Shown: positions 4,429 through 56,928 of the stretch, piece by piece
Numbering within the stretch: position 1 is the stretch's first letter
Layout: each line of letters begins with the position of its first letter
Assembly (NCBI GenBank): GCA_034420695.1
Contig: DAOULB010000040.1
Coordinates: forward strand, 80,162 to 144,161
Origin: Dehalococcoidia bacterium
Lineage (GTDB): Bacteria > Chloroflexota > Dehalococcoidia > Lucifugimonadales > UBA3495
Length of the DNA: 64,000 nt
Direction of reading: 5' to 3'
Translations under genes and position numbers: made by a program
Notes under the pieces: generated by a model
Databases searched by the model: none
Told to the model about the DNA's origin: nothing
The model's input: the letters and a program-made list of their open reading frames with translations, nothing else

Positions 4429-7014
4429 TCAGGGCAGGTAGCTGTAGTACAGGGCGTCGTACCAAGGGTCCTCCAACCGGCGAAAGAGCCAGTAGTTAAT
4501 ACCGTCACTCCACGATTTCCGGCTGCTCAAGGCCGATTGGAAATATCTCAGGTCCTTGGTGAATTGTACCTTGCTGGGCAGTCCCCTGAACCCAAGAAAC
4601 GAGCCCTCATAGGCGCGGTTTTCGCCGGGCCTCCGGTAGCTCTCGGGAAACCAGAGCAGGCTCTTGAGGGGGCCGTCCCTGCGGAAGTGTTCCAAGTCCG
4701 CCTCGTCCCGGTCGCCGTGGACCGTGGTCAGCAGCCTGGCCGAGGCTTCCGTTGATTCTGACACTGGCTTGCAGTCGGAAGTCCAGGCCGGGTCTGACTC
4801 GCTCTTGAAACAGGCGAACCTGAGGCTTTTCTGGTCGTGTAGGTGCCTCACGTACCATTGCAAGGGGTACCATACGTCGTAGTCAACCACTATTTGGGTT
4901 TCAAGATTTTCCCGAAGGGACAGGAGGTCCAACTCCCGGTAGGTTGTCTTCAGGTCGGAGCCGCCTTGGGCGTAAACCAGGACTTCGACGTTGGAATCGT
5001 CGTAGGTGTAGGCGGCCCGGAAGCCGCCCCATATGCTGAATCCCAGCAACAGGGCCGCCAGCCCGAGGCCACCCAGTGCGGCGCCCCGGCGATGAGGGTC
5101 TGCTTGCAGCAGTCCGGCGGAAACCAGCCCCGCTGCCGCGCAAGCCGCCAGCAGGAGCCATTCGGTATTGCCCCAAGTGGACTCCGTATCGACCCACCGG
5201 TAAACCAAGTACACGGCCCCGGCGAGGAGCCCAGGCCAGAGGACCAGTTGGGCGGTGTAGGCCCGGTTCAAGGCCTCCTGCCAGCGCACCCGTTCCAGGA
5301 GGCGCCCCAGGAAAGCCCCGCTGAGGAAAATCAAAGGCAGGGAGATATTTACCAGCAGCCACGGCATTTTCTCACTGGCCACGGTGTAGGCCAGGAAAGT
5401 AACCAAGGCCCACAGGGTCATCACCAGTCCGAGGGGGTCACCCCGCCGCAGGAAATAGACCGCTCCCGTGATCCCGAAGGCCGCCGGAAGATATTCGTAA
5501 ATGGAAACCCCTACGAAGTAGTAGTACCAAGGCTGGTCACCCCTGGCCACCTCTTGCTGGGCCATCCAATAGCCCATGCCTTGCCACACGCCGCTGAAAA
5601 CCCCGGCAAGGTTGGTGAAGAAGGTGGTGTAGAGCAGGGTCCAGATGCCGTAGAACACCCCGGCCAAGCCCAGCCACGCCAGCCCCAGCCAGCGAATCCC
5701 CAGCCAGGCCGAACCGGCTAAGGCGGCCCCCACCACCAGTACTGCCGCGACGAAGTTCAAGGGAATTCCGTTGGGGATTTCCCCCAAGGCGGTGCCCGGC
5801 GGCAGCAGCCAGTGCACCACCCCGCTGACACTGAGCGCAGATGTGAACAGCGCCAAGTAGACCGCGGTCAGCAGGGGTGGGAGGAACAATAACGCCGGGT
5901 CTCCGCGCCAAGTGTTCCGTGAGACGTACAAGGTGAGAGCGGCCGCGGCTGTGAGGACGCCGGCGGCTGCCACGGAAGCCTGCCAGTCTCCGGTTCCAGC
6001 GTCAAAGGGAAGGAGGACCGCAAAGCAGACCGCGGCAACCAGCGCCAGCGGAACACCCAGGGAGCCGGGCAGCTCCTTGACCGGGGTCCCGGAACGGCGG
6101 CTGTGCCAGGTCAGGGCGGTCACGCCCAGCATGGCTACTATGAGGTGAGTCCACCACTGGCCTTGGTACAACGGGATGGATAGGTACGGGCCCTCCCATT
6201 GGGGGGCTCCCACCAGCCCTTCCGAAACGCCGTCGGGGTTGACCAAGGCCAGGCCCAAGGGCCCCTGCAACAGGCCGAAAAGAGGCCCCCACTGGGGGAG
6301 GGTCAAGGTGCATAGCAGGAGGAAGAATCCGGCCGGACCCGCCAGTCCCCGCAGGGAGGTCCTGCGAGTGAAACAGGGAGCCAACTGGGGGAGGGCCAGC
6401 AGGAAGGCCACCCCACCAAAAAACAGGGTCACGAAGTAGGCCGTCTCCTTGGTGGCAAACATGAAGGCCAGCACCGCAGCGGCAAGGAACAGGTAACGGT
6501 TGCGCCCCTCTTCGATGTATCGCCACAGGAGGACCAGCAGGGCCGAAGCCCAGAAGGCCATGATGATGTCGTTGCGCCCGAACCGGCTGAAGTACAGCAT
6601 CACCGGCGAAAGCGCCAGCAGGGTCCCGGTCAACAGGGCGCCGGCGTTGCCGATGCGCTCCCGCAGGAAATAGGGAATCCCCACCAAGGCCGTGCCGAAA
6701 AACACATAGGCCAAGCGGGCGGTGAAGTCGGTGTCGCCGAAGACCCGGATGAACAGGGCCGTCAAGTCTACCTGGAAGGGGCCGTGCATCCAAGGGGAAT
6801 GAATAAACCCGTGACCTTCGGACAGCCGCCACGCTGCCTGGAGGTGGATGGCCTCGTCATAGTGCATAGTGCGGCCATCCAGTTCCCAGAGCCGCAGCGC
6901 CAAGGCAAGGGCCATCAGGCCGAGGAACGCCATTTGCGGCCATTCCAAGGTGATAGTGAGGGTGGGTAGTTCCCGGCGGCGGCCTGGACTTTTACCTGAT
7001 TTCAGCCTGAGCAT
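4429..7014 (-). CDS. TIGR03663-like GT-C (PMT/GT39-like) polytopic membrane protein
   Basis: RLWELDGRTMHYDEAIH, WMHGPFQ, YFSRFGRND, KET, YWMAQQEVARGDQPWYYY, EKMPWL, LVYAQ motifs. Confidence 0.8.
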   Translation of the reverse strand: MLRLKSGKSPGRRRELPTLTITLEWPQMAFLGLMALALALRLWELDGRTMHYDEAIHLQAAWRLSEGHGFIHSPWMHGPFQVDLTALFIRVFGDTDFTARLAYVFFGTALVGIPYFLRERIGNAGALLTGTLLALSPVMLYFSRFGRNDIIMAFWASALLVLLWRYIEEGRNRYLFLAAAVLAFMFATKETAYFVTLFFGGVAFLLALPQLAPCFTRRTSLRGLAGPAGFFLLLCTLTLPQWGPLFGLLQGPLGLALVNPDGVSEGLVGAPQWEGPYLSIPLYQGQWWTHLIVAMLGVTALTWHSRRSGTPVKELPGSLGVPLALVAAVCFAVLLPFDAGTGDWQASVAAAGVLTAAAALTLYVSRNTWRGDPALLFLPPLLTAVYLALFTSALSVSGVVHWLLPPGTALGEIPNGIPLNFVAAVLVVGAALAGSAWLGIRWLGLAWLGLAGVFYGIWTLLYTTFFTNLAGVFSGVWQGMGYWMAQQEVARGDQPWYYYFVGVSIYEYLPAAFGITGAVYFLRRGDPLGLVMTLWALVTFLAYTVASEKMPWLLVNISLPLIFLSGAFLGRLLERVRWQEALNRAYTAQLVLWPGLLAGAVYLVYRWVDTESTWGNTEWLLLAACAAAGLVSAGLLQADPHRRGAALGGLGLAALLLGFSIWGGFRAAYTYDDSNVEVLVYAQGGSDLKTTYRELDLLSLRENLETQIVVDYDVWYPLQWYVRHLHDQKSLRFACFKSESDPAWTSDCKPVSESTEASARLLTTVHGDRDEADLEHFRRDGPLKSLLWFPESYRRPGENRAYEGSFLGFRGLPSKVQFTKDLRYFQSALSSRKSWSDGINYWLFRRLEDPWYDALYYSYLP

Positions 7015-7079: not shown

Positions 7080-9467
7080 TCACTGTTCATACTCGTATAT
7101 GGTTACGTCGTGGCTGGTGAAAACGGGCTTTAAAAAGCCGTGGTTCTCCAGGTTTTCCCAGCCATAGCTCTCCGTCTCCCGGTGACCTTGGTACACGTAT
7201 CTTACCCCGTATAGGTCCAACAGTTCCCGCACTTGGCCGTGGTCGCTGCTGCGGTAAATGGTCTCTACGTCATCGGCCCGGCCTTCGAACAATTGGCTGC
7301 TGCCCCGCCATTGCAACTCATGGCTCGGCCAGCCGAGCACCGTGGCCCGTCCGGTGCTCGACGATATTCGGCCGTACTCGGTGTAGTCGTCCCCCACCGC
7401 CTCCACGATTCGGCCCCATGGGGCAACATCGCGGAGCCAGCCTATGGCGGCGTACTCTCCGGGCCGCTCCCCCTTGATGAAGGCCAGCCCGTCCAAGGTG
7501 TTGGCTTCGAAGGAGTGGCCTTCCCGCAGGAGCCCGGTGCGGTCTAGAGCGGCCCCCGCGGGGTAGTAAAGGGCTGCTGCCACCAGTACGGCAACCAGCA
7601 GCAGCCAAAGCCGATGGCCGCCTGCCTTCATCCAACTTGAACTCAACACCGCACCGGGTTGAGGAAACCTCATAGGACGTGAGGCCCAGTAGAAGATAGC
7701 GTAGCCTCCGGCCAGCCCCAATAGCAGCCAAGCTTGGTAATACACCTTGAAAACCGTGTTCATCCGCCGCAAGCCGCCCCCGAAGGCATCGGCTACGTAG
7801 AATAGCTCCGCCCCGGCCAGCAGGAGGAACCCCGTCAACAGCAAACCCAAGGTGAACACCCGGCCGGGGTCGTCTCCAGAGCGAGCACAGCGGGCCAGGC
7901 TGTAGCAGGCCAAGGCCGCGACGGCCAGGGCGGGCAGTGCCCAACCCGCCCTGTGGAGTATGGAGGCCGTGGAAAAGCTCCCGTCCACGATTCTTGCGGC
8001 AATGGGGGCGGCCATAACCCAGATCGCGAAGGGAAGCAGCATGGTCAAAACTACCGCTAGCAGAAGTGGTCGTTGCTCCCTGTCGTGCAGACCCAGGACC
8101 GGAAGTTGGCGCAACAGGAAGGAGACGCCCAGCAGGGAAAACAGACCCATTACCAGGAGGAAGTGGAAGGGCCTTGTGCCATGCTCCAAGAGGGGCAAGA
8201 CTCCCTTGGCTTGGGTGGAGAATGTCAAATAGAAGGGAAGAAACAGGGCGACGCCAATTGCCAAGATGGACGCGAAGACGAAGATGGCGCGGCCAGCACC
8301 CCGTAGTCCCCGGCGGCAGCCGGGGACGCACCACTTTACCATGAAGACCAAGGCCAGGAAGAATGCGACGGTTACAAAGTCCCAAGTGTTGATGAAGGCC
8401 AGGGAGCCGATGAACATCGCCAGGGCGGCGGCTTCCAGGGGATGGCGTTTCAACCAAGTCAAGGCCGGTTGTTCTTTGTACAGCATCAGGTTCAGGCATA
8501 GGTACAGGGCTAATACCATAAAGGGCAGGGACAGGACATGGGCATGGAGGTCCCCCAGGAGGAAGCTGAAGAAGGGGAATTCGGTGATGGTGTAGTCCAG
8601 GCTCTGCCCGCCGGCGATGGTGTCTATCACCCGGGTGGCGCGCCACCACCACCAGTTCTCCTGTGGGAAGAAGGCGCCGGTCCCGGTCGGGCTCCCCTCC
8701 AGCCCCTTGATGCCCACCCATTCCCAGAAGGCGGCCGACCCCCAGCCTTGGGCCCAGACGAACTCCATGACCCCTTCCAGGTTACCCGCGAGAATAATCA
8801 GCAGCGGCGCGGCCAAGGCATAGAGCGTCGCCCGCCGGACGCCGGCGCCCGACAGGCGTATAAGGTTGTAGAGCAGTCCGAAGGACGCCGAAGCCAGGAG
8901 GGCTGGGACGGAAGCAAGGGCCAGGTTGTAGGCAACGCTTGAGGGGATGGACGTCAACTTGGCGAGCAGGGCCATGATGAAGTGGCCGAAGTAGTAGTAG
9001 CTGATGGAATGGCCGGCAAGCCACGGGTCCTCCGGAGGGAAGAAACGGCTGTGGAGGGAGGCGTTGAAAAGGGCAAGGTCCATCGGCTTTTCGGTGTGGT
9101 TGATGGCCGGTGATTCGGATGTGATCCCTGCCCAGAGCAGGAAGAACCCCAGGAAAAGGACCTCTGCCGCGGCCAAGGCGGGCCAGTGCTGCTTTACAAA
9201 TGAGGCCAGTTCCCGCCAGCGGTCCTTGATCACCCACCAAGAAGCAAACCCAAGAATGAGCACGATTCCCAGGATGGTGTACCGGGCGCTGGGAACCAAG
9301 TGGGTCAGGCCCAGCACCCAAATGGCATAGGAGCAGAGCACCAGGGAAAAGGGCTTGGCCACGGCAAAGCCGCGGTCCGGGAGGCGGTGCAACAATCGAA
9401 AACAAAGGGGGAAGGACAGCAGCCCCAGGAATTCTATGGCCAGAAGCCAAAGGAGCAGGTCAAGCAC
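7080..9467 (-). CDS. DUF2298 (Chlor_Arch_YYY-type) membrane protein
   Basis: EKPMD, DPWLAG..ISYYYFGH, ITEFPFFSFLLGDLHAH, NTWDF, RMNTVFK, TLDGLAF motifs. Confidence 0.85.
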   Translation of the reverse strand: MLDLLLWLLAIEFLGLLSFPLCFRLLHRLPDRGFAVAKPFSLVLCSYAIWVLGLTHLVPSARYTILGIVLILGFASWWVIKDRWRELASFVKQHWPALAAAEVLFLGFFLLWAGITSESPAINHTEKPMDLALFNASLHSRFFPPEDPWLAGHSISYYYFGHFIMALLAKLTSIPSSVAYNLALASVPALLASASFGLLYNLIRLSGAGVRRATLYALAAPLLIILAGNLEGVMEFVWAQGWGSAAFWEWVGIKGLEGSPTGTGAFFPQENWWWWRATRVIDTIAGGQSLDYTITEFPFFSFLLGDLHAHVLSLPFMVLALYLCLNLMLYKEQPALTWLKRHPLEAAALAMFIGSLAFINTWDFVTVAFFLALVFMVKWCVPGCRRGLRGAGRAIFVFASILAIGVALFLPFYLTFSTQAKGVLPLLEHGTRPFHFLLVMGLFSLLGVSFLLRQLPVLGLHDREQRPLLLAVVLTMLLPFAIWVMAAPIAARIVDGSFSTASILHRAGWALPALAVAALACYSLARCARSGDDPGRVFTLGLLLTGFLLLAGAELFYVADAFGGGLRRMNTVFKVYYQAWLLLGLAGGYAIFYWASRPMRFPQPGAVLSSSWMKAGGHRLWLLLVAVLVAAALYYPAGAALDRTGLLREGHSFEANTLDGLAFIKGERPGEYAAIGWLRDVAPWGRIVEAVGDDYTEYGRISSSTGRATVLGWPSHELQWRGSSQLFEGRADDVETIYRSSDHGQVRELLDLYGVRYVYQGHRETESYGWENLENHGFLKPVFTSHDVTIYEYEQ

Positions 9468-10637: not shown

Positions 10638-11351
10638 TCAGGGTTGACGGGTTTCCTGGACCTGCATGTCCAGGTTTTCCAGGGCGTTGCGAGCGGCTTC
10701 CCGTTCGGCGTCGGCCTTTCTCCCGCCTTGTCCCCGCCCGGCTACATTGCCGTCAACCACCACCTCCACCGTGAACACCGGGTCATGGTCCGGTCCGGTG
10801 CTGCCGGCCAGCCTGTATTCCGGGCCTGGAATCCCCTGACCTTGGACCCGCTCCTGCAGCAGTGACTTGGCGTTCGCCGGGGCGGCTCCCATTGCCAAGT
10901 AAGCGTCAATCTCGGGGGCCATGGAACGCAATATGAAGTCCTTGGCGTGGGCAAGGCCCTGGTCCAAGTAGACCGCGCCGGTGACGGCTTCCATAGCGGC
11001 AGCCAAGGTCGAGTCCCGGCCCCGCCCTTGACTGGCCTCCTCCCCATGTCCAAGGAGGATGAAATCTCCCAAGCCCAAACGGCGGGCCACCCCCGCCAAG
11101 GATTCCCGGCACACCAGGGAAGCCCGGCCCTTGGTCAGGTCTCCCTCGGAATGGCCGGGCAGCAACTGGTATAGCTCGGAAGAAATCACCAGTTCCAAGA
11201 CGGAGTCGCCCAGAAACTCCATGCGCTCGTAGGAATCGATGGAGTCTCCGCCGGTCTCGTTAATGTAGGAACGATGAACCAGGGCCTGATGAAGCAGGCC
11301 CTGGTCTTGAAAGGTCACGCCAAGTCTTGGTTCCAGGGGATGGGCGGCCAA
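10638..11351 (-). CDS. rnc: Ribonuclease III
   Basis: ALVHRS, ERMEFLGDSVL signature, C-terminal dsRBD (AKSLLQE...GPDHDPVF...KADAEREAA); TTG start. Confidence 0.96.
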   Translation of the reverse strand: MAAHPLEPRLGVTFQDQGLLHQALVHRSYINETGGDSIDSYERMEFLGDSVLELVISSELYQLLPGHSEGDLTKGRASLVCRESLAGVARRLGLGDFILLGHGEEASQGRGRDSTLAAAMEAVTGAVYLDQGLAHAKDFILRSMAPEIDAYLAMGAAPANAKSLLQERVQGQGIPGPEYRLAGSTGPDHDPVFTVEVVVDGNVAGRGQGGRKADAEREAARNALENLDMQVQETRQP

Positions 11352-11354
11352 GGA

Positions 11355-11993
11355 TTATCCCCGGATGACCCCATGAGGCCACGGAGGCTGAGGGCGCTTC
11401 ATCTCTCCCACATGCTCCAATTGCCCAATCACGTGGGTCATTGAATCGTAAATCTCTGCTGCCTGTTCATCCGGAGGAATGAACATCTTGAGGAAGGCAG
11501 CGTTTCCGCCGGGGAACACGTAGGTCGGGACCCCGAACACGCCGTGCTCCTCTACCGCCTTGGTATGGCTCTCGGCGATTTCCCGCAGAAGGTCGGGGTC
11601 GGACTGGTCCTCCAAGAACCGGCCCATGTCAAGGCCAGCCACTGTGGCGGCCTCCTTCATCACCTCGGGGTCGTTCAAGTCCTTCTTCTCTTCGTGGCGG
11701 GCCTTGAGCAGGGCGACGAAGAACGACTTAAAGGCCTCTTCCCCCTGCCTCTTGGCGGCCAAGCCCGACATGTGGGCCAGGAAGGTCTTGTCGGACCCGT
11801 CCAGCACCCCGGGTTGCTCCCAAGTCTTCAACTCCGCATTAGAGTCCGCATTGACTTGGGCCAAGGAAAAGGGCTGCCAGTCAATCTCTATGGTGTTTCC
11901 AGTGTTGTCTTCCACCTTTGCCAGCCACATGGCGGCATTGTACACGAATGGTCAACGAAAATCGTAATATGTAGTGAACTGACTCCCAGCCAT
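11355..11993 (-). CDS. DsbA/FrnE-like thioredoxin-fold protein with in-frame UGA (candidate selenocysteine) at the catalytic position; 212 aa on read-through
   Basis: ATG 11993 with GGAGG 8 nt upstream reads MAGSQFTTYYDFR, then TGA (11954-11952), then in the same frame PFVYNAAMWLAK...; cis-Pro loop FGVPTY; no Cys elsewhere in the protein. Confidence 0.85.
11919..11937 (-). promoter_or_regulatory. Candidate bacterial SECIS hairpin
   Basis: UGCC-GCC-AUGU-GGC-U-GGCA: 7-bp stem with one bulged U and a 4-nt loop starting 21 nt 3' of the UGA. The loop G is at position 3, so the consensus fit is imperfect. Confidence 0.5.
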
Positions 11994-12041
11994 TACTTCG
12001 CCTCCCTTAGTGGTATCGTGCGCCTCTAATGGTCTCTGCAG

Positions 12042-12070
12042 ATTGTAGCTATCCGCCCCGCCCATGTCAA
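12042..12070 (-). promoter_or_regulatory. Sigma70-type promoter for the DsbA-like/rnc/ftsY unit
   Basis: TTGACA-N17-TACAAT on the minus strand, about 50 nt upstream of ATG 11993. Confidence 0.75.
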
Positions 12071-12293
12071 AGCACCTGGTTGTCTCTGTCAGCCTCTCCT
12101 TGATGAGGATTCGGAGAGTGCCGTGGGGGCTTACCACAAGCCTGTTGGCAACAGGGCTGGTTCATGCTCATCCGGCGTCGGCTTTCGTTTACCGGTAGCG
12201 GAAAGCGCGGACTGAGGGGCGCCAATGAGGGAAGCGGCGCCCCCGTTTAAGGGAGCGTGGGCAAGGGCTGCACCGGGGAATTACGGAACGTCA

Positions 12294-12352: not shown

Positions 12353-13627
12353 ATGCTCGCCGATGTAGTAGAGAGTATTGGCGGTCCATCGCTGACCGCT
12401 CTTCGTGCGTTACAGCGTATAGCCCTGGACCGGAACGAACGGGTCTATCTTGTTGGAGGCCCGGTCCGGGACGCATTGCTGGGGCGCCCGCTGAAGGACC
12501 TGGATTTCGCGGTGGAAGGCAATGCTGCGGCATTGGCTGCCTCGCTGGCAGGGGAAATTGAGGGCCGCTTGGTGGTGCACCGGCGATTTGGGACAGCGTC
12601 GGTTATTGCAACAGGCTGCACCGTTGACTTGGTAACCGCCCGCCGGGAACACTATCCCCAGCCGGGGGCTCTTCCTGACGTTATTCCCGCTTCTATTGAG
12701 GACGACTTGGCCCGCCGGGATTTTTCCATCAACGCCATGGCCATTCCACTGGCGCCGGAGGGCTGCGCTCTGATCGACCACTGTAGCGGCCGCGAAGACC
12801 TCCGCCGGGGGTTGGTGCGAATACTCCATCCCAACAGTTTCACCGATGACCCGACGCGGATTTTCCGGGCGGTGCGATATGAGCAGCGGCTCGGTTTCGA
12901 GATTGAGGCTGCCACCCTGGAGAGCATCCAGCGCACTCTCCGGGACAAGCGAATCGACCTGCTGACCGGGGACAGGGTGAGGCATGAGCTGGAGCGCATA
13001 CTCAAAGAGGAGAATCCTGCTCCGGCCCTCGTTCGGGCAATGGAGCTTGGCGTGCTGGCCGGGATGCATCCGGCCCTGACCGGGGAAGGTTTCTTGAACA
13101 GGATTCAGCGGCTGGCGGAGGGCTCCCGGAACCGGGCCCTTCGGCTTGACCCCTTGGTGTGGCTGGCGGCCCTTGTTCACCACTTGAAGGAGTCTCAAGC
13201 CCATGCCTTGGCCCAGCGTTTGAACATGCCCCGGTCATGGCGGTCCGCCGTAGAAAGTTCCGTTTGCCTGAGGGAGCATTGGCAGAAACTAGGAACCCCC
13301 GGGTTGGCCGACTCCTCTCTGGTTCATATACTGGGGCAATGTTCTGAAGATGCGGTTCTGGCAGCTTCACTCTTTGGCGAGCCGGTCCACATCCGGGAGC
13401 GCTTGAGTAGATACTTGGAGCATCTACGCCGAGTCAAGCCCGACGTGGACGGCGATGACCTTCGGGAGTTGGGAATTGCCCCGGGTCCTGAACTGGGACA
13501 AATTCTTGAGGCGGTCTGGGAGGCCAAGTTGGACGGCCTGGTGGTGACCAAGGCTGAACAAGTCCAATTGGCCAGGGACATCCTGGTTGGCCGGAGGCAG
13601 AAGACTCCGGCCTTGGAAGGTTCATGA
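12353..13627 (+). CDS. cca: CCA-adding tRNA nucleotidyltransferase
   Basis: YLVGGPVRDALL...DLDF, DLARRDFSINAMA, DDPTRIFRAVRYE, ERVRHEL-like motif. Confidence 0.9.
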   Translation: MLADVVESIGGPSLTALRALQRIALDRNERVYLVGGPVRDALLGRPLKDLDFAVEGNAAALAASLAGEIEGRLVVHRRFGTASVIATGCTVDLVTARREHYPQPGALPDVIPASIEDDLARRDFSINAMAIPLAPEGCALIDHCSGREDLRRGLVRILHPNSFTDDPTRIFRAVRYEQRLGFEIEAATLESIQRTLRDKRIDLLTGDRVRHELERILKEENPAPALVRAMELGVLAGMHPALTGEGFLNRIQRLAEGSRNRALRLDPLVWLAALVHHLKESQAHALAQRLNMPRSWRSAVESSVCLREHWQKLGTPGLADSSLVHILGQCSEDAVLAASLFGEPVHIRERLSRYLEHLRRVKPDVDGDDLRELGIAPGPELGQILEAVWEAKLDGLVVTKAEQVQLARDILVGRRQKTPALEGS

Positions 13628-13836
13628 CGGAAGACTTGGACGCAGAGGCCTGCGTAATCTGCGGGGAGGACTTGGACGAGGTGCACCAAGCAACCTGCCA
13701 GCTTTGTGGGGGCAAGTTCCACCACCCCTGGTCCCAGGATGCCGAGGTGCCCAAATGCGGCCTGATCGGCAGCCACGAGGAGGCCCTGGCCATAGTTTTT
13801 CTTTGCAACGACTGCTATTACGGCCGCAGGCCATGA
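13624..13836 (+). CDS. Small (70 aa) Cys/His-rich putative zinc-finger protein
   Basis: CVIC...CQLC...FHH...C...H...CNDC; ATGA overlap with the cca stop. Confidence 0.7.
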   Translation: MTEDLDAEACVICGEDLDEVHQATCQLCGGKFHHPWSQDAEVPKCGLIGSHEEALAIVFLCNDCYYGRRP

Positions 13837-26509: not shown

Positions 26510-27667
26510 ATGACTGTAGAACAGGTAGGCAAAATCATAGAGGAGATACACGCCGCTCCTCCGTTGGCGGTGGTCGCCGCGGCGGGGGCTGGCAGCCAGG
26601 CAGTGGCGTGGCTCCTGGGTGTGGCTGGCGCCTCCCGCACGCTGCTGGAAGTGGTGGTGCCCTATGGCAGGCTGTCCATGATCGACTTCGTGGGCCGCGA
26701 GCCCGACCAGTTTGTCTCGGAGGAGAACGCCCGGGACATGGCTTCTGCTGCCTACCGCCGGGCCCTCGATCTCAGGGAAGATAGCCAGCCTGTCCTGGGC
26801 CTGGCCTGCACCGCGACAATTGCCACCGACCGTACCAAGCGGGGCGACCATCGGGCCTTCGTGGCGATGTGGGACCAGGCCGGCTGCTCCGAATATGGAC
26901 TGCTCTTGGACAAGGGTCTCCGGGACCGGGAAGGGGAGGAGGAACTAGTCAGCCGGCTGATTATCCAGGCGTTGGCCAAGGCTTCAGGGGTTGACGACGT
27001 TCTCCCCTTGGAAGTGCTGGGCTTGGTGGAGCTCACCGCCAATGACAGGCTCCAATATCGGCGGACAGACCACCCGGACCCCGTTAGTCTGTTGCTGGAG
27101 GGAGCCGTTTCCTGGGTAACGGCCCACCCGGATGGCAGCCTGATTCCTGAAGAACCGTGGGCCGGAGCCATACTCCCGGGCTCCTTCCGACCTTATCACC
27201 ACGGTCACCGCCAGTTGGCCAAGGCTGCGGAAGAGATCCTCGGTTGCCCCGTGGCATTTGAGCTGTCGGTTCTAAACGTCGATAAGCCACCTCTGGAAGC
27301 TTCGGAAATCAGGAAGCGGTTGTCCCAGTTCACCGGTGAGGCGCCGGTGTTGCTCACCCGGGCAGAGACCTTTCACAAGAAGGCCGGCCTGTTTCCCGGG
27401 TGCACCTTCGTTGTGGGTTGCGACACCGCAGTGCGGCTGGTGGCTGATAGATACTACGGCAACTCCTACGAGGAAATGGCGAGGGCCCTGGCTGAAATCT
27501 GGGCTGCCGGCTGCCGATTCTTGGTAGCTGGGCGCGAGGCGGACGGACGATACCAGACCGTGGCCGATGTGCCGGTGCCCGAGGGGTTTGGTTCCCTGTT
27601 TCAAGGGATACCAGAGTCCCGGTTTAGAGTAGACATCTCCTCCACCGCCCTTCGGGCACATACGTGA
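26510..27667 (+). CDS. Two-domain protein: CinA/PncC-like N-terminal domain fused to an HxGH nucleotidyltransferase-like domain
   Basis: N-half GVAGASRTL...Y...VSEENARDMA...GLACTA; C-half PGSFRPYHHGH, ELS..NVDKP, VGCDTAVRL..RYY, ISSTALR. Confidence 0.65.
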   Translation: MTVEQVGKIIEEIHAAPPLAVVAAAGAGSQAVAWLLGVAGASRTLLEVVVPYGRLSMIDFVGREPDQFVSEENARDMASAAYRRALDLREDSQPVLGLACTATIATDRTKRGDHRAFVAMWDQAGCSEYGLLLDKGLRDREGEEELVSRLIIQALAKASGVDDVLPLEVLGLVELTANDRLQYRRTDHPDPVSLLLEGAVSWVTAHPDGSLIPEEPWAGAILPGSFRPYHHGHRQLAKAAEEILGCPVAFELSVLNVDKPPLEASEIRKRLSQFTGEAPVLLTRAETFHKKAGLFPGCTFVVGCDTAVRLVADRYYGNSYEEMARALAEIWAAGCRFLVAGREADGRYQTVADVPVPEGFGSLFQGIPESRFRVDISSTALRAHT

Positions 27668-28308: not shown

Positions 28309-28832
28309 CCCAAGACGGCGGAAACCGGCCTGCCCCAAGCACGCTTCATCTGGCGACCGCCGGCAAGGTTCCAGGGGTTATCACCACTACCACCGAACAG
28401 CTCTTTGCCATGGCCCGGAAATCGTCTCTGTGGACGTTGAGCTTCGGACTTGCCTGCTGCGCCATAGAAATGATTTCTACCTACATGGCCCATCACGACT
28501 TCGACCGGTTCGGCGTGGTCACTTGGCCGTCCCCCCGCCAGTCGGACGTGATGATAGTTGCCGGCACGGTGGTCAAGAAGATGGCCGAACCAATTCGCCT
28601 GCTGTACGAGCAGATGCCAGAGCCCAAGTGGGTCATAGCCATGGGTAGCTGCGCCACCAACGGCGGCCCCTACTACCGCTCCTACTCGGTGGTGATGGGC
28701 GTGGACCACATCATTCCGGTGGACGTGTACGTGCCGGGTTGTCCGCCGCGTCCCGAGGCGCTGCTATACGGCATCCTTAAGCTCCAAGAAAAAATCATGG
28801 AAGACGCCGGAAAGAGTGTCGACACCCAGTAG
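28296..28832 (+). CDS. nuoB: NADH-quinone oxidoreductase subunit B (probable TTG start overlapping the end of nuoA)
   Basis: [45 protein letters not shown]. Confidence 0.95.
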
Positions 28833-29331
28833 TTCCCAATCGATACTGGATACCCTTTCCTCCGAAAACCGCCTGTTGTTGGACAGAATGGTGGCAGCGA
28901 TGGCCGGCCTCCACCCCGGCCCCGGCGCAATGCGGGACCTGCCATTGGTGACCGTCGAGCCGGGCGACCTGCTGCAAGCCTGCCAGATTGCCAAGGAATC
29001 CCCGGGATTGAATGCCAACCAACTGTTGTGCTTGGCCTGCGTGGACTACCAGGAGCACTTTCAACTGGTGTACTTCCTCAGGTCCCTGGGTGGTCCCGGG
29101 GAACCGGTTAAGATTATGGTCATCAAGGCCAACCTGTCCTATGAAGACCCCCGCGCCCCTTCGGTGGTCCAACTGTGGCGGGCTGCAGAGTGGTACGAGC
29201 GCGAAGCCCGAGACCTATTCGGGGTGACCTTTGAAGGAAACCCCAACTTGACGCCCTTGCTGCTTTACGACAAGTTCGAGGGTTTCCCGGGGAGGAAAGA
29301 GTTCCCCCTCAACGATTACCAGGAGTTCTGA
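28816..29331 (+). CDS. nuoC: NADH-quinone oxidoreductase subunit C
   Basis: [42 protein letters not shown]. Confidence 0.9.
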
Positions 29332-29624: not shown

Positions 29625-29996
29625 TTATCCGCCTTGCCCGGCGTCTGGCAGTGTCGCCAGCACTCGGCTTACCAAGTCGCTGATTTTGGGGCGGTCCGTT
29701 CGCCATTCGTGGTCTTCCATGAACCAATGGTAAAAGTCACGATGGAACTTCTCAGCGACGCCGAAATTGGAGGCGATTAGTGGGTCATCCAGCTCATCGG
29801 CCAACCTTTCGGCTGCTTGCTTTGTGGCAGCATGGCTGGTCTGGGGCCATCCCCGCTCCAAAGCTACTGCCATCAGCGCATGGGAGGCGGCGCCCCACAA
29901 TTTCTCCGATGCCTGCATTTGGTCGCCTTCGGCATAGTGACGGTCTGCCTTTTGCAAGTAGTCCAAGGCGGTTTGGGCGTGTTCCTGAGTGAGCAT
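29625..29996 (-). CDS. PaREP1/HEPN-like protein, copy 2 (antisense inside the nuo operon)
   Basis: GDQMQASEKLWGAASHA...ERGW, FHRDFY; TATAAT on the minus strand at 30038-30033. Confidence 0.75.
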   Translation of the reverse strand: MLTQEHAQTALDYLQKADRHYAEGDQMQASEKLWGAASHALMAVALERGWPQTSHAATKQAAERLADELDDPLIASNFGVAEKFHRDFYHWFMEDHEWRTDRPKISDLVSRVLATLPDAGQGG

Positions 29997-30060
29997 GCAG
30001 CGTCTTGCCCCTCGTGGTATCGATTATGGCCTATTATAGGGTATGCGGGTGCGGCCTGGC

Positions 30061-31266
30061 ATGGCAAGCGCCCCGGGCGAAGCTCCCTTTGGGCTCTCTC
30101 TTGATGAGTGGAACGTTGTGGAAGTAATGGAAAGCTCCCTGAACAAGATGGACGACGCAGCAACCTCGGGGGAACCCATAGAGATGCTGCTCAACATGGG
30201 ACCCCAGCATCCGTCCACCCACGGGGTCTTCCGAATGGTCCTATGGGTCGATGGGGAAAAGATTGTGGACATGGAGCCCCACATAGGCTACCTGCACCGG
30301 GGTTCGGAGAAAATCTGTGAAGGGGAACAGTACCATCAAGCCATAACCCTCTTCGACCGAATGGACTACGTTGCCAACTTCAACAACGAGCTGGTGTACT
30401 GCATGGCGGTGGAAGAACTCATGGGCTTGGAGGTGCCGGAAAAGGCCGAGTACATCCGGGTCATTCTCTGCGAACTGAATCGAATTGCCAGCCACCTCCT
30501 CTTCGCCGCCACTATGGGCCTGGACGCCGGGGCCATGACGCCCTCCATGATCTGCTTCCGGGGAAGGGAAAGAGTCCAGACCCTTTTTGAGGCTGTCTCC
30601 GGGGCCAGGATGATGCACAACTATTTCAGGGTCGGCGGCCTGAAGGAAGATGTGCCGGACGGCTTCCGTACTATGGTCGAAGAGTTGCTCCCGCTGCTCA
30701 GGGAAGATGTGGAGGAGTCGGACCGGCTGCTGACCTTCAACGAGATTTTCCTTGCCCGGCTCAAGGATGTGGGAGCGATCTCCGTGGACGACGCCATCGA
30801 CTTCGGATTCACCGGCCCCTGCCTGCGGGCCTGCGGCCTGGACTATGACCTGCGTAAGGCCGAACCCTATTCGGTGTACGATCGTTTCGAGTTCGACGTG
30901 CCAGTGGGTTTGGACGGGGATTCATGGGACCGGTATTACGTACGAGTCCAAGAGATGTACCAGTCACTGAGCATCGTGGAGCAGGCCCTAGCCCAGATGC
31001 CGGAGGGTGGAGTAGCCTCCTCCCTGGGACGGCGCTTGATCCGGCCCCCGGCGGGGGAGGTTTACGCCCGGGCGGAAAATCCGCGGGGTGAAATAGGAGT
31101 TTACCTGGTGAGCGATGGCACCGACCGCCCGTACCGGGTCAAGGTCAGGCCGCCCTCCTTCTGCAACCTGTCGGCCATCAGGCACATGCTCCGCGGAGCT
31201 TGGGTGGCAGACGCAGTGGTAATCCTGGGCTCCCTGGACATAGTGCTGGGAGAGGTTGACCGGTGA
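30061..31266 (+). CDS. nuoD: NADH-quinone oxidoreductase subunit D (start uncertain)
   Basis: NMGPQHPSTHGVFR, GYLHRGSEK, DRMDY, ELNRIASHL, ENPRGE, GSLDIVLGEVDR. Confidence 0.96.
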   Translation: MASAPGEAPFGLSLDEWNVVEVMESSLNKMDDAATSGEPIEMLLNMGPQHPSTHGVFRMVLWVDGEKIVDMEPHIGYLHRGSEKICEGEQYHQAITLFDRMDYVANFNNELVYCMAVEELMGLEVPEKAEYIRVILCELNRIASHLLFAATMGLDAGAMTPSMICFRGRERVQTLFEAVSGARMMHNYFRVGGLKEDVPDGFRTMVEELLPLLREDVEESDRLLTFNEIFLARLKDVGAISVDDAIDFGFTGPCLRACGLDYDLRKAEPYSVYDRFEFDVPVGLDGDSWDRYYVRVQEMYQSLSIVEQALAQMPEGGVASSLGRRLIRPPAGEVYARAENPRGEIGVYLVSDGTDRPYRVKVRPPSFCNLSAIRHMLRGAWVADAVVILGSLDIVLGEVDR

Positions 31267-42742: not shown

Positions 42743-45700
42743 TTGTTCCCCACCCGCAGTATTCCCCCGCCATTGGCCCGCCTGTACCAAGCCGTGCAAA
42801 CCTCCTTTGCCAGACTGTGGGCCCATGTGTCGCCTGAGACAGCGGTGCTTGGCCTGATACTGGCTGCGGGCTTGGCATTGCGCTGGAACGGCCTGGACTG
42901 GGACCGGGGTTACGGGTTTCATCCCGACGAGCGGGATATCTACATGCGGGCCGAATGCATGTACCAAGCCCTGACCAACTCACCCGGCTTTCGCGCCTGC
43001 GGCTACCTGCAGGAATGGCCCAACGTTGTCCCGGGGGTGCCCGGGCTCAGCGTGTTCCTCGATCCGGAACGCAGTCCCCTCAACCCCCACTGGTTTCCCT
43101 TGGGAAGCATCCTTGTCTATGCCTTGGTTTTCCTTCGCTCGGTACTGGAAACCGTGACCGACCTTTCCGCCTTCGATATGCGCTTCGTCGGCAGGGGCTT
43201 GGCCGGGCTGGCCGATGTTGGGTCGGTGTTCCTGGTGTTCCTGTTGGGGCAGCGCCTCTTCGGACGGAAGGCCGGGCTGCTGGCCGCGGCCCTCACCGCT
43301 CTGGCGGTGGTCCACGTGCAGCACAGCCATTTCTACCGCCCCGAGCCCTTTGCCGCCTTCTTCACACTGGGGGCATTCTGGGCGGCGTTTCGCATGATGG
43401 AGCGCCGCCGCATTGCCGACTCGCTGCTCGTGGGAGCCTTGGTTGGCTTGGCGGTCGCCCCAAAGGTCAGCGGGGCCGTGGTGATGCTGCCGGTGGCGAT
43501 GGCCTACTGTTTCCGGCTTTGGGACGCCATAGGCGGCCACGGTCCGGTAGGCCGTGAGACTTGGTGGAAGGTTGCCGCCCACGGTGCGGCCATGCTGGCG
43601 GCCTCTGCTGCCGTGTTCTTTGCTGTTACCCCCTATGCCCTGCTGGACTTTGCATCTTTTTCCTGGGACTTGGAAATCCAGGGCTACATGGTGCGCAATG
43701 CAGGAATATGGCCCTTCACGGTGCAGTACGTTGGTACCCAGCCTTTTCTGTACCAGTTCAAGCAGACGGCCGTGTTCGGTCTGGGGCTGCCCCTGGGTGT
43801 AATAGCCTGGCTGGGCATCCCCTTCGCCGCGTTTGCCCTGTTCCGGGACCATGCCTCCTTCCGGTATCTGGCTATGGTGCTGGCCTACGTGGCCGCCAGC
43901 CTGGCCATTCTGGAAAGCTTCGAGATCCGCTTCCTTCGCTACCTGTTCACCTTGATGCCCCTGATGATTCTGCTGGGCTCCGGGATGCTCTTCTGGTTCT
44001 TGGATGCCGCCGGAAGCCTGGCGGACCGGGGCGGCGCGGCTGGCCGGGGGGCGTCAACTGGGACACTGCCGTCTTGGACGGCCTGGGCGGGCCGCGTGCT
44101 CCGGTGGGCGTCGCTGGGGCTGATTATTTTCGTTCTGGCGGCCACCGCGTTCTACTCTCTGGCTTTTCAGAGGGTCTACTCCACGGAGCACCCGGCGGTA
44201 GCTGCTTCCCTCTGGATTAACCAGAACCTCGAGAGGGGAACCCCGATCGTCAGCGACAACCATTGGGACGAGTTCCTCCCTGACCTCTACCGGTACGACC
44301 TGTGGCAGTACCCCGTGTACGAAGAGGACACCCCGGACAAGATGGAGACCCTGGCCCGCCAACTTAGCCGTTCGGACTACTTGGTCTTTTACAGCCACCG
44401 GCCCTACTTCAGCGTCAGCCGGGACCCAGAAAGGTTCCCTTACAGCGCTCATTACTACCAGAGGTTGTTCGACGGAGACTTGGGCTACCGCCTGGAAAGG
44501 GCCTTCACTTCTTACCCCGGCCTGTGGGGGGTTGAGTTCCGGGACGACCCGGTCGGCGCCGCGAGCCTGCCGTCTCCCTATCCGGCAACTGGGGCGCAAA
44601 GGGGAGCATGGAGTTTCAACCTCGGCTACGCCGATGACAACGTGGTGGGATACGACCATCCCCAAGTGCTGTTGTTCCGCAACGAGGCGGGACTCCCCTT
44701 CCAATCGCTGAAGGAAACCCTGGTTATTGAGCCTCCTCCGGACGGTATCTGGGAAGAGCCAGGCCCCTTGATGCTGTCAGAACGAGACTTGGAGTTGCAG
44801 CAGCGGGGAGGCACTTGGAGCCGGATAGTCGACCGGGAGAGCTGGACCAACCGCCTTCCGGTGCTGGCTTGGCTCCTGGCGGTGGAACTGGTCTTCCTCG
44901 CAGCCCTGCCCCTTGCGATCTACCTTTTTCGTTTCCTGCCCGACCGGGGAATCGTCCTCGCCCGGGTCTTGGGGTTGCTGCTGGTCTCCTACTTGGCCTG
45001 GCTTGCGGTGAGCTTGGGTTGGTTGGAGTTTTCCCGGACGGCCATCGTTGCCGGGTTCTTGGCTGTGGCGGCCTTTTCCCTTCTGTTGTTGGCCCTCCGC
45101 TGGAACGAAATCACCGGGCTGGTGAGGCAGCGGTGGCGGTTGTTGGTGGGGGTTGAGACCCTGTTCCTCCTGGCGTTTCTCGCCTTTGTGCTGTTGCGGG
45201 CGCTCAACCCTGACTTGTGGCATCCTTGGCGCGGCGGCGAGAAACCAATGGAACTGGCCTACTTGAACGCCGTCATCAAGTCCACCACCATGCCGCCTTT
45301 TGATCCCTGGTTTGCCGGTGGATACCTTAACTATTACTACTTCGGATACGTAATGCCGGCGTCCCTGGTGCGTATAACCGGCATCATTCCTACGACAGCG
45401 TTCAACTTGGCCGTGCCGCTCTTCTTTGCCCTCACCGTCACCGGGGCCTTTTCCTTGGTTTACAACATGGCCCAAGGTGTACGGGCGTCCCGGATCAGGG
45501 AGCTAGAATCGCTTAACCTGGCAGGATCTCGGGGCCTGTGGGCCGTCTTGAAGGGTCCGGTCGGAGCCGGCCTGCTGGGGGCCGTCTTCGTCGCGGTCAT
45601 AGGGAACCTCGACGGCATGCTGCAGGTGGTTGAAGGTGTGTGGGGCCGGTTGTTCCACTCCGGGTCTCCGCCCCTTGATTTCGACTTCTGGCGCAGCAGT

Positions 45701-47281
45701 CGGATGATTCCCAGCCTGGAGAATTTTGAGCCACCGGCCCTGGCGTTCTGGCTGAAGGACGGAGCCGCCGGTGTGCAGCACGTTACTCCCCACATCACCG
45801 AGTTTCCATTTTTCACCTTCCTCTTTGCCGATTTTCATGCCCACCTGATGGTCGTTCCCATAACCTTGTTGGTGCTGGGTCTGGGAATGAATCTGCTGGC
45901 CGGCCTGGGACGGGACGGCATCTCCTGGACGTTGGCGGCTGCCTTGGCCTTGGCGGTGTCCTTGGGTTCCCTGTGGGCGGTCAATAGCTGGGACTATCCA
46001 ACCTACCTGCTGCTGGTGGTAGCCCTGCTGGTCTTGGCGGCCTACCGGCTAGCCGGGTCTCCGCGCCGCCGGATATTCTTCGGCGCCCTGTTAGCGGCGG
46101 GAGTAGTGGCCGTCAGTCTGGCCGCTTTCTGGCCCTTCCACCAAGCCTACGAGACCTTCGACAGCGGTTTGGAGGCTTCCTTGTGGCGGACGCCCCTGGA
46201 CCGGTACCTGCTGATACACGGCCTGTTCCTGTTCATTGCCGTATCTTTTCTGTTGGCGCAACTTCGGAGGAGTGTGCCGGGCTTGTCCGGTGGTTTCCGC
46301 GGGGGTGGGAGCGCCTTTATGGCGGCAAAGCGGAAGCCCTTAGCCGTCGTTGGGGTGGCGGGAGTTGTGTTCCTGCTCTTCGCCCTGTCCGGATATTGGA
46401 CTGCCGCTGTCCTTTGGCTGGCGCTGGCTGGGGTGGCCTGGGCTGCTTGGCGGTCGATTGCTCGGGACCAGGGCGGCAGCCCCTATGCCTTGTTCCCCCT
46501 GGCGCTGCTCGCTATGGGGCTGGGAATCAGTATTGGACTGGACTTTGTGAGAATCTCCGGGGATATCGGGCGGATGAATACCCTGTTCAAGTATTACTTG
46601 GAAGTGTGGGTGTTTTTTGCCTTGGCCGCGGCCTACTTCCTGTGGCGCCTCTTCGACAGCGGGTCCGTCAGGAGAATGCCGGGATGGGCCCGGGGCGCTT
46701 GGCTGGCGGTCCTCTTGGTGCTGTTGATATCGTGCATGGTCTATCCCTTTTGGGGGACCAAGGACCGTTTGGGGGACCGCTTCATGGATACCCCTCTGAC
46801 CTTGGACGGTACTGCCTACATGGACGACGCCTACCACTTCGAGTCCGGCCAGCCCCTCGCCCTGCGCTGGGACTTGGAAGCAATCGAGTGGCTGCAGGAC
46901 AACGTGGCTGGTTCCCCGGTGGTGCTGGAAGCCCACGGCCCCCAGTACCATTGGAACTCCCGCATCGCCAACTACACCGGGCTTCCCACGGTCCTAGGCT
47001 GGCCTTGGCACCAGACCCAGCAGCGCATGGCCTACTACCAGCATATAGACGAAAGAGTCCGGCACGCGGGCTACATCTACAACACCACCGACTTCGCGCT
47101 CGCCGAGGAACTGCTGCGGTTGTACCGCGTAGAGTACATCGTGATTGGAGAGCTGGAACGTATCTACTACGATGCGCAAGGACTTCAGAAGTTTCTGCAC
47201 TGGGAGGGGGAGGATCGCATGGCAAGGGTCTTCGAGAACCAGGGTGTAACCATCTACAGGGTGCTGTGGATCCAACCATAG
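42743..47281 (+). CDS. 1512-aa fusion: N-terminal GT39/PMT-like glycosyltransferase plus C-terminal DUF2298 module
   Basis: N-half FHPDE, PHWFPLG, QHSHFYRPE, K.S, PFTVQY; C-half GGEKPME, DPWFAGGYLNYYYFGY, ITEFPFFTFLFADFHAH, NSWDY, RMNTLFK, TLDG. Confidence 0.85.
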   Translation: MFPTRSIPPPLARLYQAVQTSFARLWAHVSPETAVLGLILAAGLALRWNGLDWDRGYGFHPDERDIYMRAECMYQALTNSPGFRACGYLQEWPNVVPGVPGLSVFLDPERSPLNPHWFPLGSILVYALVFLRSVLETVTDLSAFDMRFVGRGLAGLADVGSVFLVFLLGQRLFGRKAGLLAAALTALAVVHVQHSHFYRPEPFAAFFTLGAFWAAFRMMERRRIADSLLVGALVGLAVAPKVSGAVVMLPVAMAYCFRLWDAIGGHGPVGRETWWKVAAHGAAMLAASAAVFFAVTPYALLDFASFSWDLEIQGYMVRNAGIWPFTVQYVGTQPFLYQFKQTAVFGLGLPLGVIAWLGIPFAAFALFRDHASFRYLAMVLAYVAASLAILESFEIRFLRYLFTLMPLMILLGSGMLFWFLDAAGSLADRGGAAGRGASTGTLPSWTAWAGRVLRWASLGLIIFVLAATAFYSLAFQRVYSTEHPAVAASLWINQNLERGTPIVSDNHWDEFLPDLYRYDLWQYPVYEEDTPDKMETLARQLSRSDYLVFYSHRPYFSVSRDPERFPYSAHYYQRLFDGDLGYRLERAFTSYPGLWGVEFRDDPVGAASLPSPYPATGAQRGAWSFNLGYADDNVVGYDHPQVLLFRNEAGLPFQSLKETLVIEPPPDGIWEEPGPLMLSERDLELQQRGGTWSRIVDRESWTNRLPVLAWLLAVELVFLAALPLAIYLFRFLPDRGIVLARVLGLLLVSYLAWLAVSLGWLEFSRTAIVAGFLAVAAFSLLLLALRWNEITGLVRQRWRLLVGVETLFLLAFLAFVLLRALNPDLWHPWRGGEKPMELAYLNAVIKSTTMPPFDPWFAGGYLNYYYFGYVMPASLVRITGIIPTTAFNLAVPLFFALTVTGAFSLVYNMAQGVRASRIRELESLNLAGSRGLWAVLKGPVGAGLLGAVFVAVIGNLDGMLQVVEGVWGRLFHSGSPPLDFDFWRSSRMIPSLENFEPPALAFWLKDGAAGVQHVTPHITEFPFFTFLFADFHAHLMVVPITLLVLGLGMNLLAGLGRDGISWTLAAALALAVSLGSLWAVNSWDYPTYLLLVVALLVLAAYRLAGSPRRRIFFGALLAAGVVAVSLAAFWPFHQAYETFDSGLEASLWRTPLDRYLLIHGLFLFIAVSFLLAQLRRSVPGLSGGFRGGGSAFMAAKRKPLAVVGVAGVVFLLFALSGYWTAAVLWLALAGVAWAAWRSIARDQGGSPYALFPLALLAMGLGISIGLDFVRISGDIGRMNTLFKYYLEVWVFFALAAAYFLWRLFDSGSVRRMPGWARGAWLAVLLVLLISCMVYPFWGTKDRLGDRFMDTPLTLDGTAYMDDAYHFESGQPLALRWDLEAIEWLQDNVAGSPVVLEAHGPQYHWNSRIANYTGLPTVLGWPWHQTQQRMAYYQHIDERVRHAGYIYNTTDFALAEELLRLYRVEYIVIGELERIYYDAQGLQKFLHWEGEDRMARVFENQGVTIYRVLWIQP

Positions 47282-56343: not shown

Positions 56344-56928
56344 ATGACTTTGGAACTGCCGGACGCCGGATACCAGACCCCCCACGACCACATGGCCATA
56401 AGCCGCAGGTTCATTGCCCAAGCCAGGAAAGAACTGGAAGACGATGACCGCCTTCAAGCGTCCGAAAAGCTCTGGGGGGCAACCGCCCACGCCCTCAAAT
56501 CGATAGCCGCGCAGCGTGGATGGCATCACGACGACCACCTGCTGATCAAGCAAATCGCCACCCAGCTAAGTGACGAATTTGAACGCCCGCATTTCGACGC
56601 CAATGTCCGTTTTGCGGAATCCTTTCATGTGAATTTTTACTCCAACATGGAACAAGCGGATAATATCGAAAGAGCTATTAACCTCGTCGAACAGTTGATT
56701 GCTGACTTGGACCTAGTACGCTCCGCATCGCCGCGTCCCTTCCAAGTCAAGAACAACTCTCAAAGAAACCGCCTGCAGTTCCTGTTAGGCAGGCAGGTCG
56801 GCGCCGATGAATCGTCCGAAGATGGTTTTGTGAACCACGAACGATTGGAACGGCTCAGGCAGCGCCGTGAGCGCCAGAACCTTGCGCCCAGCCAGGGTGA
56901 AGAGGCGGATGGCGCGTCCGCCGAGTAA
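56344..56928 (+). CDS. PaREP1/HEPN-like protein, copy 3, with C-terminal extension
   Basis: DDRLQASEKLWGATAHALKSIAAQRGW, FHVNFY. Confidence 0.75.
   Translation: MTLELPDAGYQTPHDHMAISRRFIAQARKELEDDDRLQASEKLWGATAHALKSIAAQRGWHHDDHLLIKQIATQLSDEFERPHFDANVRFAESFHVNFYSNMEQADNIERAINLVEQLIADLDLVRSASPRPFQVKNNSQRNRLQFLLGRQVGADESSEDGFVNHERLERLRQRRERQNLAPSQGEEADGASAE

Follow-up and report, generated by a model that had tools for sequence, protein, structure and literature searches.

We found that a gene in the genome of a marine Chloroflexota bacterium of the SAR202/Dehalococcoidia type, which appears as two separate open reading frames (ORFs) in a program-made list, most probably encodes a DsbA-like protein with selenocysteine (Sec) at its catalytic position. 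The gene lies in a stretch of 64,000 nucleotides (nt) from a Dehalococcoidia bacterium (GenBank assembly GCA_034420695.1, contig DAOULB010000040.1, positions 80,162 to 144,161 of the forward strand), which is referred to here as the window, and coordinates are those of the window unless a locus is named. Based on comparisons of sequences, we put the probability that this is a genuine selenoprotein gene, and that its in-frame UGA is decoded as Sec, at about 0.9. The gene and the elements that surround it are as follows:

11355..11993, reverse strand: complete coding sequence predicted for the DsbA-like selenoprotein (212 codons and a stop), with Sec as codon 14 (PF01323, 63.6 bits; PF22234, 37.4 bits)
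11952..11954, reverse strand: in-frame TGA (codon 14), which takes the catalytic position that follows strand beta1 and precedes helix alpha1
11919..11937, reverse strand: candidate bacterial Sec insertion sequence (SECIS) hairpin, with 14 nt (11951..11938) between it and the UGA
12001..12006, reverse strand: Shine-Dalgarno sequence GGGAGG, 7 nt 5' of the ATG, read from the sequence
12042..12070, reverse strand: sigma-70-like promoter, TTGACA (12070..12065), 17-nt spacer, TACAAT (12047..12042), a match to the consensus that would serve as the promoter
10638..11351, reverse strand: rnc (RNase III), the downstream gene, starting 3-4 nt past the selenoprotein stop; context, outside the recoding device

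From the ATG at 11993..11991, the frame reads MAGSQFTTYYDFR up to the TGA at 11954..11952 and resumes with PFVYNAAMW (the start of PFVYNAAMWLAK), after which it runs to the TAA at 11357..11355, with 198 open codons between the two stop codons. In the program-made list the gene is cut into an ORF of 61 amino acids (11952..12137) and one of 196 amino acids (11355..11945). An earlier reading of the window, made from its letters alone and referred to here as the original prediction, had proposed a hidden gene split by a UGA, with its start at ATG 11993, a GGAGG upstream of it and a continuation of 198 residues, and each of these was found in place. Orthologs L001, L005 and L006 likewise have a GGAGG before their start codons. 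The promoter that the same reading had described as intact agrees with the consensus at 11 of 12 positions, and one such site was found versus 0.3 +/- 0.6 in shuffled sequences.

Relatives of the protein were collected from a search of 5.8 billion proteins, which gave 440, and from a scan of one genome per GTDB species, which gave 434. The best 80 of these 434, all from Dehalococcoidia, SAR202 or Chloroflexota metagenome-assembled genomes (MAGs) and with 64-83% amino acid identity, were kept and, with further loci, made up a set of 88. TGA was present at the same column in 88/88 of the orthologous loci fetched, 80 of them being distinct GTDB species genomes, and the loci come from independent assemblies produced by many projects and technologies. 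The DNA behind shortened database proteins was found to have the in-frame TGA after a conserved FTTYYDFR, together with the ATG and the GGAGG. The catalytic column is likewise TGA in three distant loci from other environments, one of which is a groundwater metagenome (L093 1..930, L094 5725..6421 and L095 2603..3299; 44-45% identity), within the contexts FYDYT-U-PFVY and CDYT-U-PYVH, where U is Sec. As the TGA, a hairpin that is equally far from it but made of other nucleotides, and the cca/dsbA-like/rnc gene order are all seen in L093-L095, the use of Sec by this ortholog group would reach beyond the marine SAR202.

Most of the close relatives had been called as proteins of 189-196 amino acids, with their start just past the TGA column. 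A minority of the relatives are full-length proteins of 210 amino acids that read FYDFR-C-PFVYNA, with Cys exactly at the column of the window's TGA. FYDFRCPFVY was read in proteins P0020, P0023, P0024, P0027, P0035, P0038 and P0061, and the codon at the column in the Cys homologs at loci L089-L092 is TGT or TGC. The alignment of homologs thus agrees with the proposal that the UGA occupies the place of a catalytic Cys, as the column holds Cys in the full-length forms and Cys24 of the Deinococcus radiodurans protein DR2335 (PDB 7DK9). Genes around the Sec forms are ordered CCA-adding enzyme (divergent), DsbA-like, rnc, ftsY, DUF2298, PMT_2, LPG synthase and amine oxidase. The order CCA-adding enzyme/DsbA-like/rnc/ftsY is also found around the Cys ortholog L089 and around the distant groundwater Sec forms L094 and L095. 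Since L089 is in the same syntenic slot as the Sec forms, Sec and Cys alternate inside one ortholog group. The other Cys forms lie outside the conserved synteny, and one of them, L091 (982..1799), is directly upstream of genes for an OsmC-like protein and a glutaredoxin, a neighborhood of thiol-redox genes that is consistent with the role proposed below.

The codons that precede the TGA also behaved as coding sequence. An ATG or GTG was located exactly 13 codons 5' of the TGA in 84/88 orthologs, and over the nine codons before the TGA the entropy was 1.03 at third positions versus 0.32-0.40 at positions 1 and 2. Synonymous and non-synonymous changes in the last 7 codons before the TGA stood at 116:44, and purifying selection was strong on either side of it. 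These data bear on the possibility that the TGA is a true stop, which would end a leader peptide of 13 codons, and that an N-truncated DsbA-like product is made from an internal start (e.g., GTG 11945 or ATG 11930). Gene callers do annotate products of 189-196 amino acids, and most orthologs carry an ATG or GTG, coding for the M or V of AAM/VWL, soon after the TGA. However, the supposed leader matches the N-terminus of the Cys forms residue for residue and evolves as coding sequence, and the shortened product would have neither strand beta1 nor the sole redox residue of the protein. In addition, L084, L085 and L087 have CGG (Arg) in place of the M/V codon, the internal codon has no Shine-Dalgarno sequence before it whereas GGGAGG stands before ATG 11993, and the callers choose four or five different internal starts. 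We consider it very unlikely that the protein is made in this way.

Further support for the decoding of the UGA as Sec was found in the RNA just downstream of it. The original prediction had noted a stem-loop of 7 base pairs (bp) that begins 14 nt 3' of the UGA, and this hairpin is present, conserved and covarying. It consists of a 5' arm UGCCGCC (11937..11931), a loop AUGU (11930..11927) and a 3' arm GGC(U)GGCA (11926..11919) with a bulged U at 11923, and has a folding energy of -10.3 kcal/mol. When the 71-nt stretch around the UGA was folded alone the z-score was -0.13 versus dinucleotide shuffles, a comparison that is uninformative for a single sequence. The window hairpin beats 99.25% of synonymous-codon shuffles of the same peptide (p = 0.0075). 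A hairpin was found at equal distance from the UGA in 75/75 distinct Sec-form sequences (-9.8 +/- 0.8 kcal/mol), and four Cys forms had weaker folds of other shapes (-4.5 to -7.0 kcal/mol).

For the analysis of covariation, 75 distinct ortholog sequences were aligned without gaps and both bulge registers were specified by hand, the bulge being at column 47 in some orthologs and at column 49 in others. The closing pair, formed by columns 33 and 51, was C-G in 41 of the 75 sequences, U-A in 32 and other or unpaired in 2. The two columns lie 18 nt apart, each at a third codon position. Pair 37/46 was G-C in 66, A-U in 8 and G-U in 1. A value of 0.215 was obtained for the covariation score at these two pairs, versus 0.119 +/- 0.009 in shuffled alignments; it was reached by 0/500 shuffles and was above all slid controls. 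On a neighbor-joining tree made from the rest of the gene, Fitch parsimony required 4 or more changes at column 33 and 3 or more at column 51. This agrees with 3 or more coordinated U-A/C-G switches, and for pair 37/46 such switches number 2 or more. The distant locus L094 (44% identity) rebuilds the hairpin from different nucleotides and keeps the bulged U (CGGCGGCC-GUCU-GGC(U)CGCCG).

In the SECIS of Escherichia coli fdhF, which lies just 3' of the UGA, the upper stem has a bulged U and the small apical loop holds a G-U dinucleotide; the spacer of its minimal form is usually quoted as 11 nt. The window stem-loop resembles the fdhF element in being within the coding region just 3' of the UGA and in having a bulged U and a G-U in the loop. 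It differs in its spacer of 14 nt, in its loop (AUGU or GUGU), and in having no evident lower stem and no Rfam similarity. Published criteria for bacterial SECIS (bSECIS) elements are a loop of 3-9 nt, a stem of 4-16 bp, a G in the first two loop positions, a distance of 16-37 nt from the UGA, and a minimum free energy of -7.5 kcal/mol or lower (PMC13188914). Scored on these criteria, 43/75 orthologs, which have a GUGU loop, reached 4/4, and the window and 30 others reached 3/4, the window hairpin being 21 nt from the UGA, 7 bp long and of -10.3 kcal/mol, with the loop AUGU.

Several observations weigh against the decoding of this UGA as Sec. One of the four bSECIS criteria fails in the window because the loop AUGU has its G at position 3. 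From the alignment of 75 sequences, RNAalifold predicted another structure, which was weak and had no covariation; it missed the hairpin because the orthologs use two bulge registers. There was no match to Rfam at the gathering threshold in the whole window. The hairpin partly overlaps the conserved residues A-A-M/V-W-L, and part of its conservation therefore comes from the protein. For proteins of the DR2335 type, functional data are said to be wanting altogether in a review of Deinococcus thiol reductases (PMC8945050). Finally, neither the 64-kb window nor 1.72 Mb of related DNA was found to contain selA, selB, selD or a tRNA-Sec gene. At the looser Rfam limit of E <= 10, the local region gave a match to a long non-coding RNA, which was rejected as spurious.

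The absence of the sel genes from the 1.72 Mb is uninformative rather than negative. This is because the related loci are largely the same 20-kb syntenic region. In keeping with that absence, ARAGORN found no tRNA-Sec in the window and 60 loci, and no tRNA gene of any kind in the window, and scans of six-frame translations of the 1.72 Mb for signatures of SelD (GxGC/UGxK) and SelA (GDKLLGGPQ) gave no match. The window otherwise encodes housekeeping functions (MutL, the nuo operon, enolase, GAPDH, LeuRS and Trk). Further genes interrupted by TGA were sought in the window, and CxxU or UxxC contexts in all loci, but only adjacent-gene artifacts and out-of-frame noise came up. Support for Sec machinery in the source lineage is class-level and comes from the literature. 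The ten bacteria that are richest in selenoprotein genes in BSepDB include two MAGs of the Dehalococcoidia, with 49 and 46 such genes (PMC13326102), and Dehalogenimonas has SelA, SelB and SelD (PMC5029168 supplement). The sole SAR202 genome in the latter survey, of 2016, was an incomplete single-cell assembly and was scored negative (PMC5029168 supplement). Our literature search found no paper on SAR202 and selenoproteins together.

Since the support for Sec machinery is class-level, the UGA might be recoded as something other than Sec, either by hairpin-stimulated read-through with a near-cognate tRNA (Trp or Cys) or by a lineage-specific reassignment of UGA, and one ENA gene call does give W at this codon. 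In that protein (P0048, from the ENA contig L005, a cluster of 147 member sequences) the DNA at the Sec column is TGA, and the W, which makes for a spurious full-length variant, is evidently an artifact of a gene caller's code table that reads TGA as Trp on a short contig. As TGA terminates 21/49 long ORFs in the window, neighboring genes included, the genetic code is the standard one, with no reassignment. Moreover, an enzyme with Trp as its catalytic residue would be inactive, and Cys codons are the only ones that replace the TGA among homologs, a pattern that is classical for Sec and Cys. The geometry of the hairpin agrees in large part with the model of bacterial SECIS elements, and the class is documented as rich in selenoproteins. 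Recoding as an amino acid other than Sec thus seems to us highly improbable. There is next to no chance that the gene is a pseudogene, or that a TGC or TGT was turned into TGA by a mistake in sequencing or assembly: a lone in-frame stop near the 5' end would, in one sequence, resemble a fresh nonsense mutation, but the same TGA in 88/88 independently assembled loci excludes both and the frame, start, Shine-Dalgarno sequence and promoter are intact, as the original prediction had held for the promoter, with strong purifying selection on both sides.

The read-through product of 212 amino acids matched the Pfam family DSBA (PF01323) over residues 8-164 with 63.6 bits (cut-off 25.6), which confirms its assignment as a DsbA-like protein, and also matched the Rv2466c-like family (PF22234) with 37.4 bits. 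It contains no Cys at all, and its motif is U-P-F-V, with Val at position +3. Sec would thus be its only redox residue, of the UxxV monoselenol type, as had been supposed from the sequence of the window; the CxxC or UxxC dithiol motif of the classical DsbA/FrnE oxidoreductases is absent. There is no N-terminal hydrophobic leader or export signal, because strand beta1 begins at residue 6, right after the start. The best match to a protein of solved structure was DR2335 (PDB 7DK9; E = 9e-21, residues 8-203), with Cys24 aligned to the UGA column.

For the fold, an AF2 model was made of the natural Cys form P0020 (70% identity), with a predicted local distance difference test score of 84.6 and a predicted template modeling (TM) score of 0.83. 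The model has a strand at residues 6-10, Cys14, a helix at 15-29 and a helical insert at 44-150, and its Cys14 is placed at the canonical active site of the thioredoxin fold, at the N-terminus of alpha1. A Foldseek search with this model gave 87 PDB matches at E <= 0.001, mostly DsbA-like folds, with TM-scores of 0.78 for DR2335, 0.66-0.71 for Rv2466c, and 0.57-0.59 for kappa-class glutathione S-transferase (GST) and HCCA isomerase.

Based on these data we propose the following pathway for the selenoprotein. Translation would start at ATG 11993, and at codon 14 the UGA would be decoded by SelB carrying Sec-tRNA(Sec), with SelB recruited by the mRNA hairpin at 11937..11919; the involvement of SelB and tRNA-Sec is one of the parts that we infer. 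Translation would then continue to the TAA at 11357..11355 and yield a cytoplasmic protein of 212 residues with no signal peptide. The product has a DsbA-like thioredoxin fold of the DR2335 type, with Sec at the N-terminus of alpha1, facing the conserved GVPT cis-Pro loop. As position +3 is Val and the protein has no Cys, a cycle with an intramolecular disulfide or selenenylsulfide would not be possible. By analogy with the established chemistry of thioredoxin folds, the chemistry is most likely a monothiol-type exchange. In such an exchange, the selenolate would attack a disulfide or an S-thiolated substrate to give a mixed selenenylsulfide. An external thiol, provided by a low-molecular-weight compound or by a thioredoxin-like partner, would then resolve this intermediate. 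Our confidence in this detailed chemistry, and in the substrate and reductant that it presumes, is low.

DR2335 is the closest of the known proteins that were compared. Both proteins are cytoplasmic and of ~210 amino acids, with a single redox residue in [FY]D[FY]x-C/U-P[FY], a cis-Pro loop of the form GxP-T, and [IV][KR]RP as a C-terminal motif. In contrast to the window protein, DR2335 has Cys in place of Sec, and identity is only ~29%. As its function is unreported (PMC8945050), DR2335 informs the fold and not the chemistry. Its Cys24 was mutated to Ser in PDB 7DKA; a literature search on the function of DR2335 and on the study behind 7DK9 returned nothing useful. Rv2466c of Mycobacterium tuberculosis, a mycothiol/mycoredoxin-dependent reductase, is similarly a low-molecular-weight thiol enzyme with a cytoplasmic DsbA-like fold, but has a CPWC motif. 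Kappa-class GST and HCCA isomerase share the cytoplasmic DsbA-like fold and the use of a low-molecular-weight thiol, although their catalytic residue is Ser where Sec or Cys is found here, and their sequences are only marginally similar (2imd, E = 0.84).

DsbA-like selenoproteins of the UxxC type were already known from the Sargasso Sea study of 2005 (PMC1088965). This form 1 resembles the window protein in its DsbA-like fold, in Sec being first in the active-site motif and in its occurrence in marine bacteria, but form 1 (COG2761/FrnE-like) keeps a resolving Cys, whereas the window protein has Val at +3 and zero Cys. A closer counterpart is the "DsbA-like protein form 2" of a 2026 catalog of prokaryotic selenoproteins, which is listed with PF01323, the motif DxxUP and the exemplar MDP6049977.1 (PMC13188914). 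The window protein, with D11-F-R-U14-P15 and no Cys at +3, shares PF01323 and the mono-Sec DxxUP motif. The exemplar is labelled as crotonase-family, and form 2 and the window protein were compared by description only. No crotonase domain was found in the window protein or in 440 close relatives, and the distant relatives that were searched show fusions to CoaE instead, with no other fusion seen in the wider family.

These fusions came from the wider family, which is small (612 clusters in an exhaustive search of 1.84 billion representatives). In all of its full-length members there is one Cys, which belongs to the motif CP[YF]x, and [IV]KRP as a C-terminal motif, and many other members are cut at the same column. 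Three members (P0136, P0155 and P0206) are fused to dephospho-CoA kinase; they are ~415 amino acids long and consist of a CoaE domain (156-169 bits) and a C-terminal single-Cys DsbA-like domain (FFDFSCPYVY). The fusions are possibly a Rosetta-stone pointer to coenzyme A (CoA), if a weak one. A link between the selenoprotein and CoA is suggested by the fusions in these distant relatives together with conserved basic residues (KRQG, RHE and KRP), and the protein might then, for example, remove CoA from S-CoAlated proteins or take part in CoA-disulfide exchange. A bolder interpretation of the whole would be that of an undescribed core-genome ortholog group of monoselenol DR2335-type proteins, with Sec fixed in marine SAR202 and related Dehalococcoidia, locked in the order cca/selenoprotein/rnc/ftsY and using CoA or another non-glutathione thiol as partner. 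We think that this interpretation, taken as a whole, is unlikely to hold.

The annotation of this gene is in error across its clade. Homologs in GenBank are annotated as a shortened "DsbA family protein" of 190-194 amino acids, and every homolog inspected in GenBank and ENA was a "DsbA family protein" or "hypothetical protein" of 189-196 amino acids that had lost its active site. No NCBIfam model covers the DsbA-like selenoprotein family, and because of this the error keeps spreading through SAR202 and Dehalococcoidia genomes. The original prediction had suggested that both the monoselenol form and the lineage may be unannotated. This was correct for the shortened GenBank homologs but did not hold further, as the mono-Sec DxxUP form is already cataloged (PMC13188914) and the Dehalococcoidia are known to be rich in selenoproteins (PMC13326102). 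Overall, we conclude that the selenoprotein is real, mis-annotated at the scale of a clade and of a known kind, with no new mechanism. The understanding of Sec recoding and of DsbA-fold chemistry is unchanged by it. A family-specific model with a Sec rule would mend hundreds of records. SAR202 is among the most abundant bacterial groups of the deep ocean, and the view of marine Dehalococcoidia as heavy users of selenium is extended by a Sec-dependent redox enzyme that is fixed in 80 or more species. The natural Sec/Cys pairs and the CoaE fusions also provide handles on the function of the DR2335-type single-Cys family.

With regard to the genes nearby, rnc is probably an operon partner of the selenoprotein gene. 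On the other side of the selenoprotein gene, a 70-amino acid ORF (13624..13836, forward strand) is located between the genes for the CCA-adding enzyme and a Zn-dependent dehydrogenase, and an ORF of 70-73 amino acids was seen in the same place in L001-L008. Neither this ORF nor a 385-amino acid ORF at 26510..27667 (forward strand) had a Pfam match. An ORF of 1512 amino acids (42743..47281, forward strand) joins PMT_2, in its N-terminal part, and DUF2298 (368 bits), and is a second copy of functions that are encoded separately downstream of rnc/ftsY (DUF2298 at 7080..9467 and PMT_2 at 4429..7014). The PaREP1/PaREP8 family of Pfam, described as archaeal, was matched by two ORFs of the window, which is bacterial (Chloroflexota) in all other respects, at 29625..29996 (reverse strand, 53 bits) and 56344..56928 (forward strand, 42 bits). 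The first of these is on the opposite strand to the nuo genes and breaks their row between nuoC (28816..29331) and nuoD (30043..31266). Among the related loci, a RNase_T/DEAD/Helicase_C_2 gene was split in two in L006 (4078..6950) and L007 (4074..6949), which are long-read contigs of 8-10x coverage, and was intact in L008 (4088..6961), a circular contig of 43x from a near-identical genome. The split is likely caused by assembly frameshifts and is not biological.

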